NCBI GenBank assembly: GCA_019056805.1
Contig: DXJG01000009.1
Location: forward strand, 306,769-338,768
Source: Candidatus Baldrarchaeota archaeon
GTDB lineage: Archaea > Asgardarchaeota > Baldrarchaeia > Baldrarchaeales > DXJG01
DNA: 32,000 bases
Direction: 5' to 3'
Shown: piece after piece, positions 1 through 6,310 of the stretch
How the letters are laid out: every line of letters starts with the position of its first letter
How positions within the stretch are numbered: position 1 is the first letter of the stretch
Notes under the pieces: generated by a model
Told to the model about the DNA's origin: nothing
The model's input: only the letters and a program-made list of their open reading frames with translations
Database searches by the model: none
Position numbers and translations under genes: made by a program

Positions 1-1302
1 TATTGTTGGCGTCAAGTCGTAAAGATTAGCTTCAACTTCTAAGCCTTCAGGAATACCGTGTCCTAGTATAGCTAATATTCCTGGTACGTCTCTTGGATCA
101 TGTGTTCCATCATGTCCTCCATTCCACTTTTCAGACTTTACAATACATTTTTGAGTTTTATATTCCTTTGATTTGCCTCTACTTGCCTGCCAACCTGAAT
201 TAAAAAGTATTATTAGATCTGGGGCCTCCTCTACATAAGGCCCCCAATATACGTCTCGTGTAGCCACATACTTCACTACTTTTTGCCCATCTACCTCTAT
301 CTTCTCTAAATTTTTCTTAATTTTTTGCAGAATCTCTCCGTATTCTTCAGGTTTTATTTTCCCTTGCGGTTCTCTCCCCTTCAAATTTAACCATACATCT
401 CCATACTCATACGCAACCGCCACACTACCTTCAACATCTATTTCTCCCTTAACATCTCCCTTTAGGAAACCTTGTTTATGTAGTAAGCAATTAACTAATA
501 CCTCACTATGCACCGGACAGAAACCGTGATCAGAAAGCAAAATAAACAAAGTTTCCTCAAGATCTATATTCTCCAGAAACCTAGAAATAATTACATCCAT
601 TTTTTGATAATATCTCTTAACTTTCTCTGTAAACTCATTCTTCTCATATTCTGGATGTCTTTCATCCACATATTTCCAGAAAAAGTGCTGTATACGATCT
701 GTACCCATAAACACCGTTATAAAAAAATCCCATTCTTCTTCCTCAAGTAAAAATAAGCTTATATCCATTTGTATATCAGTTATTTCATCTACTCTTTCAA
801 AAAACTTGTCCGGTTCCTCCTTAACCCTTTCGAGTAGCTTTATTTCCACATCACCTTTAAACTGTTTAATTCCGAATTTGCCTTGTAATTTTTCTTTTAT
901 TTTGGTTGGATACGGTATCCCTTCATTTTTTGCTAGAAATCCTGGTATTATGAATCCGTTTAACTCTTCTGTTCTTGCCATGGGGACATTTATTACACCC
1001 ACTTTTTTGTCATGTTCACTTAATATTTTCCATAGAGTTTTTGTTTTTATTTTATCAGGAGTATTCACTTTTCTTTTGTATGTCCCCTTTTCTCTTGTCA
1101 TAAAGCTGAATATTCCATGCTTCCCCGGGTTTACTCCCGTCATAAAAGTTGTCCATGCCACCGGAGTTTGTGCTGGTAACGGCGGTATCGTTCTACCCAT
1201 TATCCCCTGCTTTTTTATTTTTCTTAGAGCTGGCAGCGTCTCTATCCATTTTTCTACCAATATAGGTGACAAACCATCTGAGCCAATTACTAAGACCCTC
1301 AT
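1..1302 (-). CDS. Alkaline phosphatase superfamily / type I phosphodiesterase-nucleotide pyrophosphatase family protein (3' end runs off the window)
   Basis: Hand translation from ATG at 1302 gives 434 open codons: MRVLVIGSDGLSP...QTPVAWTTFMTGVNPGKHGIF...TDRIQHFFW...LSDHGF...GGHDGTH...LYDLTPTI. These are the AlkP motifs (first Asp, Thr nucleophile, DxxQH, SDHG). GGGAG lies upstream. Absent from the ORF track because its stop is outside the window. Confidence 0.9.
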   Translation of the reverse strand, partial: MRVLVIGSDGLSPILVEKWIETLPALRKIKKQGIMGRTIPPLPAQTPVAWTTFMTGVNPGKHGIFSFMTREKGTYKRKVNTPDKIKTKTLWKILSEHDKKVGVINVPMARTEELNGFIIPGFLAKNEGIPYPTKIKEKLQGKFGIKQFKGDVEIKLLERVKEEPDKFFERVDEITDIQMDISLFLLEEEEWDFFITVFMGTDRIQHFFWKYVDERHPEYEKNEFTEKVKRYYQKMDVIISRFLENIDLEETLFILLSDHGFCPVHSEVLVNCLLHKQGFLKGDVKGEIDVEGSVAVAYEYGDVWLNLKGREPQGKIKPEEYGEILQKIKKNLEKIEVDGQKVVKYVATRDVYWGPYVEEAPDLIILFNSGWQASRGKSKEYKTQKCIVKSEKWNGGHDGTHDPRDVPGILAILGHGIPEGLEVEANLYDLTPTI

Positions 1303-1362
1303 TTTCCAACTCCCTTAAATGATCAAGTACAACCCACGCTTAGGGCGAAACAATTAAATATA

Positions 1363-2382
1363 TCAAACTGCAGCTTTCTGTATCTTTTTAAGTCCTCTCA
1401 TGGCTACTATGTATGCTGATGTTGTATGAACGTCTAGTCCCAAATCTCCCGCTATTATCTTAGCACTTATTGATGAGTATGCTGGATTAACCTTTATTAA
1501 CTCTCCTTCAACCTTGGGGACTAAAACCTCCATCTGTTGTGTAAACTCCCTTAAAGCCATCTTTGAAATCTTCCTCTTAGCAGTCTTATTACCTTTAGGT
1601 TTTGGTTTAGACAATCTTTCAATAACATAGTATTTTACGCCGTGCTCTCTAGCATACTTCACAAGCTTAGTAAGGGATTCTCTCCTTAAAGAAACCGCCT
1701 TCTCCCTTGGAAATCCATGAGATGTAATCTCCATAAAATGCTCGTTTCTAACGTCTCTCATAATTCCCTGTCTATCAATTATCACCATATTTATCCTATC
1801 TGGGTTAAAGTCAAAGCCGGCAATATGTTCAGTAATCTTCGTCTTTGATTCTTTCCTCATATATTTAACGTAGAGTTCTAGTGGAATATTTATGTAGAGG
1901 ATTAATTTACTGTCTTTTGTACATATACCCGCTCCATAAGATATGTTGGAATTCGTCAATTCTTGAATTATCGGTATGTGTTTCCTTCCAAACTTTACTT
2001 TAGCTTTTAACCATCTATGTTTCCCAGTAGCTGAAGGTATTTTAATTAGCACGATTTCAGTCGACATTAACCTTATGTTTCTATTACCTTTCTCAGCTTT
2101 AACACCAACCGAATATAATTGTGGTTTCTTAAGTTTGAGATACGGTTGCTCACTATACAGTTTTGCCCTTATGTATGCTGAACGCGAGTACCATTTATTG
2201 TTAAGTATTCTTGACGTTAACAGCTTGATTATTTTGTTTTCTTTTAATCCTTTCTTCAACAGTGAATGAGCATAGTCAACAGCATCTTTAAAGTTCCTCA
2301 TAACGTATAGTAAAAAGGCTTTATCCTCTGCTGAGCTGAGAACGAGCTTTCCCTTAATTGTAGGTCTCACTTCTTTTCCCAC
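1363..2382 (-). CDS. tnpB: TnpB-family protein, atypical (no C-terminal Zn finger, His at the RuvC-III position)
   Basis: RuvC-I-like AGFDFN, RuvC-II-like YVIERL, VNPAYSS followed directly by LGLDVHTTSAYIVAMRG with no CxxC pairs. Basic 339-aa protein with a GTG start. Confidence 0.8.
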   Translation of the reverse strand: MGKEVRPTIKGKLVLSSAEDKAFLLYVMRNFKDAVDYAHSLLKKGLKENKIIKLLTSRILNNKWYSRSAYIRAKLYSEQPYLKLKKPQLYSVGVKAEKGNRNIRLMSTEIVLIKIPSATGKHRWLKAKVKFGRKHIPIIQELTNSNISYGAGICTKDSKLILYINIPLELYVKYMRKESKTKITEHIAGFDFNPDRINMVIIDRQGIMRDVRNEHFMEITSHGFPREKAVSLRRESLTKLVKYAREHGVKYYVIERLSKPKPKGNKTAKRKISKMALREFTQQMEVLVPKVEGELIKVNPAYSSISAKIIAGDLGLDVHTTSAYIVAMRGLKKIQKAAV

Positions 2383-2525
2383 TTCTCGACCACCATCCTA
2401 CCATTCTTCTCATCATAGTAAACTACGAGCTTATCCTTTGGTTTAAGATCCCACTTCTCGGCAATCTCCTTAGGTATGGTCATCTTCATTTTGGGTAAAA
2501 CCCTATATACCCCTATTAACTCCAT
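2367..2525 (-). CDS. AbrB/MazE/SpoVT-family DNA-binding protein, 52 aa (overlaps tnpB start by 16 nt)
   Basis: Hand translation: MELIGVYRVLPKMKMTIPKEIAEKWDLKPKDKLVVYYDEKNGRMVVEKWEKK, matching the xxIPKxxxxxxxLKxxDxL swapped-hairpin pattern. GGTGA at 2530-2534 precedes the ATG. Confidence 0.8.
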   Translation of the reverse strand: MELIGVYRVLPKMKMTIPKEIAEKWDLKPKDKLVVYYDEKNGRMVVEKWEKK

Positions 2526-2557
2526 GGTATCACCAGAAATATTTATAAACCACTGAG

Positions 2558-2565
2558 TATATAAA
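2558..2565. promoter_or_regulatory. Archaeal TATA box, possibly bidirectional (TTTATATA on - for abrB-tnpB; TATATAAA on + for the ncRNA candidate)
   Basis: TATA consensus with an A-rich BRE-like tract on the minus strand. It lies 23 nt before the GGTGA of abrB and about 17 nt before the start of the GC-rich structure on the plus strand. Confidence 0.5.
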
Positions 2566-2581
2566 AATTTTTAAGCATCGA

Positions 2582-2712
2582 CCCCTATGAAGAAGGCGAG
2601 GGGGATGAGCACAGATGAACCCAGATTCGATGATGGGAGTGCTGAATTAGCGTGTAGGTGCTCCTTCAGTCGGGTCTGGGCGACTCACACCCGTGATGAG
2701 ACACTCTGTGTC
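2582..2712 (+). ncRNA. Candidate structured non-coding RNA with k-loop/k-turn motifs (family unidentified)
   Basis: 73/131 nt are G+C (56%) in an AT-rich window. K-loop CCCC-UAU-GA-AGAAGGC-GA-GGGG at 2582-2603; 11-bp stem 2620-2630/2670-2680; 7-bp stem 2636-2642/2658-2664; UGAG/CUCA 2606-2609/2684-2687; hairpin GACAC-UCU-GUGUC 2700-2712. G-U wobble pairs work only on the + strand. Confidence 0.7.
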
Positions 2713-2730
2713 AAAAGATATTAAAAGATA
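2713..2730. repeat. Tandem 8-bp direct repeat AAAAGATA-tt-AAAAGATA (possible operator)
   Basis: Two exact copies at 10-bp periodicity, about 60 nt upstream of the RHH gene. The operator role is inference. Confidence 0.3.
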
Positions 2731-2792
2731 CGGGGTGGTTGAACGGCATTAGCTTTTTATTGATTGTTGAGAATTTATTGTGGGGAATTGTT

Positions 2793-3763: not shown

Positions 3764-3879
3764 ATGTCAAAATTCGGAAGTTTGAGGAGAATAGTTATAC
3801 CAAAATCGATCTGCAAAAGACTCTTGTTATCAAGGAAAGTTATAAGGTAGAGGTTATATTTGAGAAGGTAGATGAATAA
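3764..3879 (+). pseudogene. Frameshifted AbrB/MazE/SpoVT-like gene, stop overlapping tnpB start (TAATG)
   Basis: Frame 1 from ATG 3764 reads MSKFGSLRRIVIPKSICKRL. A second frame from 3823 reads LVIKESYKVEVIFEKVDE* (TAA 3877-3879). Joined, they give a typical AbrB pattern; the shift is at CTCT around 3821-3824. Confidence 0.65.
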
Positions 3880-5081
3880 TGCTTCTTAGCTACCGATTTC
3901 GCATATATCCTTCAAAAACGATCCAAGCTAAGCTGAATGAGCAACTTGAGATATGTAGATGGCTCTATAACCGACTATTAGAAGAAGTTAACAAGGCAAG
4001 AAAAGAAGGAAGGAAAATCAATAGGCAAGATACACAAGCCCTTATTGTAAAGCTCAAAGAGGAGAAGCCAGAACTAAACAAAGTTTACTCTAAGGTTTTG
4101 CAAATGGTGAACTATCAGCTATGGTCAAACATTAAGACTTTAGCTGAATTGAAGCGAAAAGGAAAGAAAACTGGAACGCTAAGGTATAAAACTGGAAACT
4201 CATTCAAAACTCTGAATTTTAATCAATCAGGCTTTAAAATCGATTTTAAACGAAGGAAACTCGTCTTGTCCAAGGTTGGTGAGATTCCAATCAAGTTACA
4301 CAGAAAAATTGAAGGAAAAATCAAAGGAGTTATAATCAAGAGGACAAAATCTGAAAAGTGGTTTGCACTCGTTCAACTCGAAGTTGTAGATGAAACGATA
4401 CCAAAAACTGGAAGGGTCATTGGTATCGATATGGGAGTTCATCACTTCGCTACCGATTCAGATGGCAATCGTTTCGAAAACCCAAAGTTTCTAGATAAAA
4501 CAATAGAGAAGATAAGGAAAATCCAAAAAGTGCTATCAAGAAAACAGAAAGGTTCAAAGAATAGAGAAAAGGCTAGAAAGAGACTGGCTAAGCTTTACGA
4601 AAAATTAGAAAATCAGAGAAACGATTTCCTTCACAAACTTTCCCGCTACTACATCAACAACTACGATGTTGTCTGCATTGAGGATTTAGATATTAAGAGT
4701 TTGGTTGAAAATAACAGATCCCACACTTTGAACCGTCACATTTTGGATGCTTCTTGGTCAAAGTTCATTCAACTACTCTTCTATAAGGCTGAAAGAGCTA
4801 ATAGAAGAGTAGTTAAGGTAAATCCAAAAAATACATCAAGAATATGTGCTAGATGTGGTAAGATTATCAAGATTGAATTAAAGGACAGATTATTTGTTTG
4901 TCCTTATTGCAGTTGGGAGGCGGACAGAGATTATAATGCCTCCCTGAACATTCTGAATGCGGGGCTGGGACGGCCCTTAGCGCCTGTGGAGAGAGAACCT
5001 CTACTCCGTATCGTTTCTTATTGGGAAGTAATTACGGGGCAAGTTCTCTCAATGAAGCAGGAAGCCCCTTGCGTCAGCTAG
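3879..5081 (+). CDS. tnpB: IS200/IS605-family RNA-guided endonuclease TnpB (canonical, HTH_OrfB type), 400 aa
   Basis: N-terminal YRFRIYP/HTH region, RuvC-I GIDMG, RuvC-II CIEDL, Zn finger CARC...CPYC, RuvC-III ADRDYNA. Catalytic D/E/D intact. Confidence 0.95.
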   Translation: MLLSYRFRIYPSKTIQAKLNEQLEICRWLYNRLLEEVNKARKEGRKINRQDTQALIVKLKEEKPELNKVYSKVLQMVNYQLWSNIKTLAELKRKGKKTGTLRYKTGNSFKTLNFNQSGFKIDFKRRKLVLSKVGEIPIKLHRKIEGKIKGVIIKRTKSEKWFALVQLEVVDETIPKTGRVIGIDMGVHHFATDSDGNRFENPKFLDKTIEKIRKIQKVLSRKQKGSKNREKARKRLAKLYEKLENQRNDFLHKLSRYYINNYDVVCIEDLDIKSLVENNRSHTLNRHILDASWSKFIQLLFYKAERANRRVVKVNPKNTSRICARCGKIIKIELKDRLFVCPYCSWEADRDYNASLNILNAGLGRPLAPVEREPLLRIVSYWEVITGQVLSMKQEAPCVS

Positions 5082-5108
5082 GGGTAGTTCACCTACTTAA
5101 GCCATAAG
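4959..5108 (+). ncRNA. Predicted reRNA/omegaRNA of the IS605-type TnpB (scaffold to 5092, guide from 5093)
   Basis: GC-rich stems overlap the tnpB 3' end: GGGC/GCCC at about 4962-4976, GAGAGAAC 4991-4998 with GTTCTCTC 5043-5050, plus the terminal hairpin. Boundaries are inferred from known TnpB reRNA layout. Confidence 0.7.
5061..5092 (+). mobile_element. IS200/IS605 right end (subterminal hairpin and TCAC cleavage site)
   Basis: GAAG-CCCCT-T-GC-GTCA-GC-T-AGGGG-TAGT-TCAC. The guide tetramer GAAG and cleavage site TCAC fit the IS608-type guide/cleavage-site pairing scheme. The left end was not located. Confidence 0.8.
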
Positions 5109-5221: not shown

Positions 5222-6310
5222 ATGAGAAAGCCAACAATATCTTTGATTATTCCCACGTATAATGAAAAAGAAAACCTACCAGTGCTCGTAAGAAGAATTC
5301 ACGAATCGTTATCTAACTATTGTGACTACGAAATTATCGTTGTTGATGACGATAGCCCCGATGAAACCTGGAAAGTTGCACAAGAACTATCAAAACAATA
5401 CCCAGTACGAGTAATCAGACGCGAGGGAAAACTAGGATTATCCTCCGCAGTAATCGAAGGATTCAAACAAGCACGCGGAGAACTCCTCGGCGTAATGGAC
5501 GCAGACCTACAACACCCACCAGAAATACTCCCAAACTTAATAGAAGAAATAAAAAACGGCAAAGACATCGTAGTAGCAAGTAGATACGTCAAAGGAGGAA
5601 AAATAGAAAACTGGGGACTAAAACGAAAAATAGTATCCAAAGGAGCCAGATTTCTAACAAAAGTCCTAGTTCCACAAGCAAGAAGCATAAAAGACCCCCT
5701 CTCAGGCTACTTCATTCTCAGAAGAGAAGTAGTTGAAGAAGCAGAGTTAAATCCAGTCGGATACAAAATCCTCCTAGAAATCTTAGTAAAAGGAAGCTAC
5801 GAAGAGGTAGCGGAAGTCCCCTTCACTTTTGGAACAAGAGAGATGGGGAAAAGCAAATTAACGGTAGGCGAGTACACTAACTTTTTAAGACATTTATATA
5901 GACTTTCAGAAACTGTAGGAGAAGTCGTAAAATTAGTTAGATACATGGTAATAAGTGTACTATCATTATTTGTAAATGTCTTTTTCTTTCTTGCTTTAAC
6001 AAACTATCTCAACCTTCACTACTTGTACTCCTCTATTCTAAGTTTAGAAGCCATGATACTATTCAGTTTTGTCTTAAGCGAAATGTGGATCTCAAAAAAC
6101 AGAAAAATTAAGAAACCAACTAGCGCCGTGTTGAGAGCTGTAAAATATAACATGTTATGCTTGGGAGGTTTACTAATAAACATTGGCATTCTATGGCTAT
6201 TTACAAATGTTTTCAACGTCTACTATCTCATCTCAAACTTCTTCGGCGCAACCGGGGCGGTCATATGGAACTATGCAATGAACGTTTGGTTAACATGGAA
6301 AACACGGTAG
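5222..6310 (+). CDS. Dolichol-phosphate glycosyltransferase (GT2, DPM1-like) with C-terminal GtrA-like membrane domain
   Basis: IIPTYNE, VVDDDSPD, GLSSAV, VMDADLQHPPE, VVASRY and DPLSGYF motifs, followed by four hydrophobic helices. Confidence 0.92.
   Translation: MRKPTISLIIPTYNEKENLPVLVRRIHESLSNYCDYEIIVVDDDSPDETWKVAQELSKQYPVRVIRREGKLGLSSAVIEGFKQARGELLGVMDADLQHPPEILPNLIEEIKNGKDIVVASRYVKGGKIENWGLKRKIVSKGARFLTKVLVPQARSIKDPLSGYFILRREVVEEAELNPVGYKILLEILVKGSYEEVAEVPFTFGTREMGKSKLTVGEYTNFLRHLYRLSETVGEVVKLVRYMVISVLSLFVNVFFFLALTNYLNLHYLYSSILSLEAMILFSFVLSEMWISKNRKIKKPTSAVLRAVKYNMLCLGGLLINIGILWLFTNVFNVYYLISNFFGATGAVIWNYAMNVWLTWKTR

Follow-up and report, generated by a model that had tools for sequence, protein, structure and literature searches.

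Introduction

What is the GC-rich island that stands divergently from an atypical abrB-tnpB gene pair in a Candidatus Baldrarchaeota archaeon, and to whom does it belong, the neighboring genes or the host? The window analyzed here is a stretch of 32,000 nucleotides (nt) from a low-GC (~35%) archaeal contig (GenBank DXJG01000009.1, positions 306,769 to 338,768; G000:C17 in our numbering, assembly 1.92 Mb). TnpB and Cas12f families are RNA-guided, and a canonical omega-RNA is encoded on the strand of tnpB, whose 3′ end it overlaps. An earlier note on this DNA had described an RNA rich in kink-turns (k-turns) at 2582-2712 and had offered two models, a trans-encoded scaffold for the neighboring TnpB (model A) or a host RNA whose 5′ end was the target of the insertion (model B). 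Here we report that the island almost certainly harbors a genuine structured RNA, as a gene or as an element end, that is part of the TnpB element. We consider it likely that this RNA serves an AbrB/RHH-TnpB element as its guide-RNA scaffold, equivalent to an omega-RNA or reRNA.

A structured RNA supported by covariation

The proposed GC-rich island was borne out, with a GC content of 0.56 at 2601-2700 against ~0.35 around it (0.51-0.56 across 2580-2750). Folding of 2575-2720 is better than that of shuffled sequences on the plus strand (z -2.48) but not on the minus strand (z -1.27). For the comparison, 80 metagenome loci encoding relatives of the neighboring TnpB-like protein were taken, with the protein set on the plus strand; their reverse-complemented upstream regions carry the same motifs at the same offsets as the window. 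An alignment of 47 trimmed sequences (A3) gave an RNAalifold consensus with compensatory changes in 23 of 25 pairs. A covariance model (R1; 167 positions, 32 pairs) was built, with the terminal k-turn stem added by hand, and 64 distinct rows were fitted to it (alignment A4). Although A4 leans toward the model for this reason, a MAFFT-only alignment gave the same helices. Standard pairs occupy 95.2% of the paired cells in A4 vs 66.9% after shuffling, and the covariation score is 0.688 vs 0.187, a value reached by 0 of 500 shuffles and falling to 0.07-0.12 when the partners are slid by 1-3 columns. Both sides change in 27 of the 32 pairs. The covariation among homologues that the earlier note had proposed as a check is thus present.

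In the window, R1 matches 2576-2746 of the plus strand (125 bits, E 5e-31), and this is the sole match in the window and in the genome. The structured RNA does lie where it had been placed, but the coordinates were too narrow, and an end at 2712 cuts it. Across loci its length ranges from 147 to 221 nt, with a median of 170 nt. A BLAST search of the RNA in 60 relatives returned only one 41-nt match, in the congener G001, and a covariance model was therefore needed. A pattern scan of the genome contigs with the 19-base k-loop motif returned at least ~119 unrelated matches, mostly in bacterial coding sequence.

Architecture of the RNA

Three motifs qualify as k-turns or k-loops: the k-turn rule, a 3-nt bulge ending in U and invariant tandem G.A/A.G pairs, holds for each of them in all 64 sequences, and their C-stems covary (Table 1). 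Two of them sit on one short helix in the 5′ module, as in the double k-turn module of euryarchaeal RNase P RNA (PMC5499556). The alignment bases G5, A6, U31, G32 and A33 of this module are invariant, the helix P1 between the kinks shows 3-6 pair types at each pair with 99.2% paired in A4, and C2579-G2609 forms the next pair below k-turn 1. The k-loop is as the earlier note had drawn it, with compensatory changes in its stem; the k-turn below its helix had been missed. In 52 of the 64 sequences the 3b.3n pair of k-turn 1 is Watson-Crick or G.U. A Watson-Crick pair at this position blocks k-turn folding in metal ions alone, according to PMC4382518, which hints that k-turn 1 depends on a protein for its folding. 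L7Ae-family genes are present in the genome, and the host L7Ae would bind the three kink-turn motifs of the RNA.

The long hairpin P2 has a lower stem of 12 bp, an upper stem whose length varies among loci and, between them, a conserved 3x3 internal loop (GAU 2632-2634 opposite UCA 2666-2668; GA(G/U) opposite (G/U)(U/C)A in the family). Fifteen of its 17 modelled pairs change on both sides, and they are 97-99% paired in A4. The lower stem includes two adjacent pairs, U2626.G2674 and U2627.G2673, which are U.G in 56/64 and 63/64 distinct homologues. On the other strand these near-invariant pairs would be C.A mismatches, so the fold is specific to the plus strand, as had been proposed for this hairpin from its G-U pairs. 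The 3′ hairpin proposed at 2700-2712 is not the conserved fold. Instead, 2702-2712 pairs with 2727-2737 to form helix P4 (loop 2713-2726), the non-canonical arm of the third k-turn, and all P4 pairs change on both sides. This k-turn has the bulge GAU 2695-2697 and the pairs G2698.A2742 and A2699.G2741; its closing stem forms the last four bases of the element described below and covaries among loci (CCGU/ACGG, GGGU/ACCC, GAGU/ACUC, GGAU/AUCC, GGGG/CCCC).

A second k-turn-like junction had been suggested at the base of P2. Its motif (AUGAA 2615-2619 with N-G-A 2681-2683) is conserved, but when a C-stem was sought that would make it a true k-turn, none was consistent. Pairings of the two linkers were also sought, with the same outcome. 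Beyond the modelled pairs, covariation was seen for just one more, that of A4 columns 29 and 165 (score 0.91), which correspond to G2603, the last base of P1, and C2690, the base just before the 3′ k-turn stem; it is 84% paired in Watson-Crick fashion with 6 pair types. This pair may reflect a tertiary contact or a second way of pairing.

Table 1. Features of the element in the window, followed by related features at other loci.
Feature	Position	Strand	Basis or remark
Whole mobile element, ~1.40 kb	1343-2746		left end, TnpB-like gene, AbrB gene, divergent promoters, RNA
Left-end terminal segment	1343-1362	-	plus strand GGG C GAAAC AATTAAATATAT
339-amino-acid (aa) zinc-finger-less TnpB-like RuvC nuclease	1363-2382	-	PF27229 (SSO2105_N), clade RIIIr-4
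52-aa AbrB/MazE-fold DNA-binding protein	2367-2525	-	Pfam PF04014 E 5e-9; NCBIfam AbrB
Conserved TATA box TTTATAAA, proposed RNA promoter	2542-2549	+	fixed distance to invariant GA
Second TATA-like box TATATAAAAA, candidate abrB-tnpB promoter (ATG at 2525)	2558-2567	-	some subgroups only
Conserved RNA scaffold	2576-2746	+	R1 match and counted covariation
5′ double kink module: k-turn 1, helix P1, k-loop	2579-2609	+	invariant bases, P1 covariation
k-turn 1	C2579, G2580 A2581 opposite GAU 2604-2606, G2607 A2608, G2609	+	
Helix P1, 4 bp, kinked at both ends	2582-2585/2600-2603 (CCCC/GGGG)	+	
k-loop above P1	UAU-GA 2586-2590 (GA 2589-2590), 7-nt loop 2591-2597, GA 2598-2599	+	
Linker 1	2610-2619	+	variable 4-6 nt, then conserved AUGAA (2615-2619)
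Long hairpin P2	2620-2680	+	lower stem 2620-2631/2669-2680, upper stem 2635-2643/2657-2665
Linker 2	2681-2690	+	conserved N-G-A, variable stretch, conserved A before last k-turn
3′ k-turn module	2691-2746	+	C-stem CCGU 2691-2694/ACGG 2743-2746
Candidate guide segment, flanking host DNA (CAUUAG...)	2747-2766	+	same bases in the G001 empty site
G004 mini-elements	L218 1501-1694; L220 1501-1690; L222 1501-1693; L223 1501-1657	-; +; +; +	
Sub-threshold Sso133 matches	L150 161-234; L210 644-700; L165 426-487; L229 1224-1286	-; -; -; -	

Linkage to a TnpB-like gene

The RNA is strictly linked to the nuclease gene. A search of the loci with R1 gave 66 matches, one per locus, every one opposite in strand to the protein gene and upstream of it, with scores of 64-146 bits save for one match cut by a contig end. 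The distance from the RNA to the beginning of the protein match is 181-254 nt. The RNA is present in 59 of the 59 metagenome loci in which the N-terminus is full-length and the upstream DNA measures 420 nt or more, and the nine loci without a match each have less than 230 nt of upstream DNA. The co-occurrence with this TnpB clade that the earlier note had asked about therefore held. Model A is supported in substance, in that the RNA goes with the neighboring TnpB; the RNA is not trans-encoded, as both lie on the same 1.4-kb element.

Among whole genomes, R1 matches were found only in that of the window (G000, one match), in its congeners G001-G003 and in G004 of the sister family, and not in 96 other genomes of the phylum. 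All copies found in the three congeners, those of G001 and G003 among them, have the RNA. It also occurs in cultured archaea of other phyla, at the same position relative to the gene, in Archaeoglobus profundus (CP001857, 112 bits) and Vulcanisaeta souniana (AP026830, 67 bits), and a truncated match at a contig end comes from a sequencing run with the Staphylothermus hellenicus protein.

The 339-aa protein has 137 homologues, tagged PF27229, including proteins of S. hellenicus, A. profundus and V. souniana. Three residues do not vary in the protein alignment (A1), namely D191 (in GFDFN), E255 and H319; D317 is near-invariant, and a CxxC motif is absent. Its AlphaFold model (pLDDT 88.8) matches Cas12f, Cas12k, ISFba1 TnpB and ISDra2 TnpB in Foldseek with E values of 5e-10 to 5e-7. 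NCBIfam TnpB matches were sub-threshold, and no Pfam match was found in a Pfam copy without PF27229. The protein lacks the C4 zinc finger, has histidine in place of the RuvC-III aspartate and follows a small AbrB/RHH gene, features that place it in clade RIIIr-4 (PF27229). Altae-Tran et al. (2023, PNAS, PMC10691335) give two of these traits for RIIIr-4, the missing zinc finger and the histidine at the position of the RuvC-III aspartate.

The abrB gene of the window overlaps the start of tnpB. Small open reading frames (ORFs) also precede the TnpB-like gene in G001 (L002 1255-1434, minus strand), A. profundus (L229 1373-1534, plus strand) and V. souniana (L230 1377-1523, plus strand). None of the three has a Pfam match and that of G001 looks RHH-like by eye, indicating that the partner protein varies between elements while the RNA stays.

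The RNA as the right end of a mobile element

An empty site is present in the congener G001, where contig C123 carries both flanks of the window side by side and lacks the RNA. Its left flank matches window 908-1319 at 79% identity and ends at 6129 of the contig, and its right flank, from 6147, aligns from window 2747 at 83% identity. Because homology resumes at 2747, the RNA lies inside an insertion of ~1.40 kb and reads out into the flank. Neither the left boundary nor the target motif can be fixed from this site, since its left flank has diverged over the final 20-25 nt.

This empty site refutes model B, to which we give next to no credence. In that model a small RNA of the host, from the L7Ae world (a guide that resembles C/D or H/ACA RNAs, or a housekeeping RNA), is a neighbor of the element by chance. 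Elements resembling a C box (RUGAUGA-like) and a D box (YGA) are present, with weak Rfam C/D scores of 11-15 bits, as such an RNA would have; these scores are far under the cut-offs of 42-54, the RNA shows no terminal C/D pairing with 10-12-nt guides, and it has no ACA box or pseudouridylation pocket. Furthermore, it is found in one copy per element and none elsewhere.

The right end of the element is exact at 2746, and the left end falls between 1343 and 1346. Between related loci in different contexts, BLAST similarity extends only from the last base of the RNA to 25-55 nt beyond the tnpB stop codon, a span of 1.35-1.46 kb; L141 and L145, for example, share 95% identity along 1456 bp, and their flanks are unrelated. 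In the multiple alignment, conservation ends directly after GAACGG or GAACCC. On the other side, the motif ...GTTTC(N2-5)CCC after the stop codon is kept in relatives and similarity ends there. We infer the exact start at the left from this motif; the left-end GGG may be flank or target rather than element. Short contigs from four DNA sequencing runs are identical to the window and bridge both junctions, and the runs contained no joints or empty-site forms.

G004 carries four mini-elements of ~280 bp, each consisting of 35 nt of the left end, the promoter with its TATA box and the RNA, and three of the four are 97% identical in different contexts. The nuclease gene was not found in this genome (96% complete) by protein or profile search. 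Non-autonomous derivatives of these elements thus exist. Together, the copies in unlike contexts, the empty site and the mini-elements demonstrate that the element is mobile, which contradicts the label of non-mobile given in PMC10691335.

Junctions and recombinases

In close pairs of loci, read on the RNA strand, the left junction is G followed by a dinucleotide and the right end is C followed by the same dinucleotide. The combination is GGG/CGG in L143/L144 and in the window (1343-1346, 2744-2746), GCC/CCC in L176/L177, L160/L162 and L148/L152, and GTC/CTC in L154/L155, with single-base exceptions in L172, L169 and L185. The shared dinucleotide sits within the last k-turn stem and may be a recombination core, a target-adjacent motif or both. 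As a pointer to a candidate target motif, the left flank has G plus the junction dinucleotide and the right end has C plus the same, and this difference at position -3 could let the nuclease tell an empty site from its own right end.

A Y1 transposase (PF01797) was not found in G000-G004 (82-96% complete). Serine recombinases of 204-218 aa (Pfam Resolvase) are encoded in G001 (L233, L235, L237), G003 (L234) and G004 (L232, L236, L238, L239), the genomes with several copies or mini-elements, and were not found in G000 or G002. Across these five genomes only, a serine recombinase supplied in trans would agree with a crossover dinucleotide common to both ends.

These observations raise the question of whether the fold is conserved mainly as a DNA-level cis element, that is, a right end recognized by a trans-acting transposase as a single-stranded DNA fold or a bound duplex, with the RNA incidental. 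Such an element would account for a fold that makes up the terminal 170 bp, for its retention by the mini-elements after loss of the genes, and for junction dinucleotides that tend to match (GG/GG, CC/CC, TC/TC) inside the last stem. However, a DNA hairpin has no need of the RNA k-turn rule that is kept in all 64 sequences, and the TATA box is held at a fixed distance even in the mini-elements. The two roles are also compatible, as the right ends of IS200/IS605 elements are both DNA end and RNA. We regard a fold that serves mainly as DNA as improbable.

Promoters and flanking genes

Each of the 63 distinct upstream regions has a TATA-like motif ~35 nt ahead of the invariant GA. In the window this is the box at 2542-2549, the putative promoter of the RNA, from which transcription would start near 2573-2575. 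The box at 2558-2567 is only 13-22 nt from the GA; its spacing fits the ATG of abrB and is too close to the RNA for an RNA promoter, and it probably drives abrB-tnpB leftward. A TATA box shared between the RNA and abrB-tnpB had been proposed: that box is present and suits abrB-tnpB, but it does not suit the RNA. The two TATA-like boxes are 16 bp apart (2542-2567), the left one spaced for the rightward RNA and the right one for the leftward operon. The two promoters would thus be interleaved.

The compact divergent promoter region, common to the RNA and the operon, would suit an RNA that acts as a regulator or antitoxin of a TnpB toxin, binding the nuclease (or L7Ae) to keep it inactive or controlling abrB-tnpB without any guiding, and a toxin-antitoxin pair has been proposed for these genes (Altae-Tran et al., PMC10691335). 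However, the predicted transcripts, starting at ~2574 rightward and ~2536 leftward, do not overlap, which makes cis-antisense control unlikely. A regulator also gives no role to the drop in conservation at the 3′ end of the scaffold or to the read-out into the flank, and a mobile element is not a fixed addiction module. We therefore hold a purely regulatory RNA to be quite improbable.

Beyond the element, a phosphodiesterase gene closes the left flank and a small ORF (2739-2978) opens the right flank. A separate canonical TnpB (OrfB_IS605, Cas12f1-like TNB domain, HTH) is encoded at 3879-5081 on the plus strand. Its 3′ end and the downstream sequence (4900-5095) are GC-rich (0.47-0.55) with no Rfam match, and this stretch is presumably the omega-RNA of that TnpB. 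At L152, a match to the C/D-box family sR17 in Rfam (1575-1631, plus strand; 33.1 bits vs 36) lies ~30 nt beyond the left end of the element.

Comparison with known RNA families and systems

Rfam gave no match at gathering score in the whole window, and between 2400 and 2900 the only scores were those for C/D families mentioned above. This agrees with the earlier note, in which the RNA was not recognized as a tRNA, SRP, RNase P, C/D or H/ACA RNA. With such scores and with spacers of the wrong length, it does not belong to the box C/D sRNAs. It resembles these and other L7Ae-bound archaeal RNAs in its standard k-turns and k-loop and in its C-box-like and D-box-like sequences, but differs in lacking the C/D guide architecture, in not being a host gene and in being tied to a nuclease rather than to Nop5/fibrillarin.

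The parallel drawn in the earlier note with RAGATH-18 stands as an analogy; no Rfam match to this family was found at E<=10 in the region of the window or at E<=1 in 12 homologous loci. RAGATH-18 is a guide of IS607 TnpB and is said to hold an E-loop and a kink-turn (Cell Res 2024, PMC11061315). Unlike the RNA of the window, this reRNA is ~73 nt long, lies downstream of tnpB and belongs to another Rfam family. A further likeness to IS607 is that the recombinases in the multi-copy relatives of the element are of the size of IS607 TnpA.

The Sso families in Rfam come from S. solfataricus transcriptome data. One of them, Sso133 (RF02814, Sulfolobus sRNA133), which has no assigned function, scores 25-33.5 bits vs a gathering score of 44 in four relatives, including the A. 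profundus copy, and has no match in the copy of the window. Its 73-nt consensus aligns to linker 1 and P2 (AUGAA, GA-GGGAG...CUCCCGUAG loop, stems) and covers only the middle third of the RNA. Sso133 probably represents a piece of the Sulfolobus counterpart of this RNA, a distant kinship that concerns the P2 domain only; if it stems from transcriptome data, it would be an indirect sign of expression.

The element is like IS200/IS605 elements and their omega-RNAs (ISDra2; PDB 8exa, 8h1j) in having a nuclease of the TnpB fold together with a non-coding, element-specific RNA, encoded in the same element, whose scaffold ends at the transposon end and continues into the flank as a candidate guide. 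It differs in that the RNA is divergent, has its own putative promoter on the other side of the gene and is built on k-turns, and in the Y1 TnpA, which was not found in the five related genomes. At no locus does the RNA overlap or follow the 3′ end of tnpB on the same strand.

The closest published system is RHH/MazE-TnpB (RIIIr-4), whose protein pair, a small AbrB/MazE or RHH gene upstream of TnpB, is the same. In PMC10691335 these systems are classed as non-mobile and exapted, and no guide is known for the clade. The element described here is mobile, with its RNA upstream and on the other strand, and where a 3′ guide might be expected only ~20-55 nt follow the stop codon within the element. 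The protein pair is thus known, while the upstream RNA and the mobility are not in the published view of the clade. A literature search on TnpB with L7Ae or kink-turns found no description of the RNA.

Discussion

The comparisons show the structure of the RNA and its conservation, its strict linkage to the nuclease gene, its place at the terminus of the element and the mobility of that element. In the reading that we consider likely, that of a guide-RNA scaffold, the RNA would be transcribed from the conserved TATA box within the element, away from the nuclease gene, and transcription would cross the right end of the element to give a scaffold of ~170 nt and a guide derived from the flank. The three kink-turn motifs, bound by the host L7Ae, would hold the scaffold in shape. 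The zinc-finger-less TnpB-like RuvC nuclease would then bind the RNA and target DNA that matches the flank, which is the element-free allele. The guide function of 2747-2766 is deduced from the read-out into flanking DNA. The G004 mini-elements, which keep the left end, promoter and RNA only, are also in keeping with a guide.

Several points weigh against this reading. The replacement of the RuvC-III aspartate by histidine leaves nuclease activity unproven. A run of five T at 2754-2758, starting 8 nt after the scaffold, may terminate transcription early, in which case the guide would be at most ~12 nt long. Since the mini-elements bear the RNA in a genome where no nuclease gene was found, the end may serve transposition and not guiding. 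No characterized TnpB guide is known to be placed as this RNA is, which differs from them in both strand and end. PMC10691335 states that the long 3′ untranslated region of RHH/MazE-TnpB "could encode a guide RNA". Finally, we infer transcription, processing, binding by L7Ae and the nuclease, use of the guide and the target-adjacent motif from sequence.

A broader proposal, which we put forward only tentatively and think doubtful as a whole, is that of a three-part nuclease composed of a minimal zinc-finger-less TnpB, a divergent guide encoded at the far end of the element and a scaffold folded by L7Ae. The last k-turn stem would double as the recombination junction, coupling transposition specificity, self-avoidance (G vs C at position -3) and guide architecture, and the enzyme that moves the element, supplied in trans, would be a serine recombinase of the IS607 type and not Y1.

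The TnpB tree has five major clades, and for RIIIr-4, one of the five, no guide RNA has so far been identified. With a scaffold defined at ~170 nt and exact in its 3′ boundary, these ~340-aa nucleases from high-temperature environments can be tested directly for activity. If the guide reading is true, a guide gene can lie apart from the gene of its nuclease, a point of consequence for computational searches confined to the region 3′ of tnpB. This would also be the first TnpB-type guide built on kink-turns of the L7Ae type, and it would connect the guides of transposons with the way in which RNA and protein are assembled in archaeal C/D and H/ACA particles.

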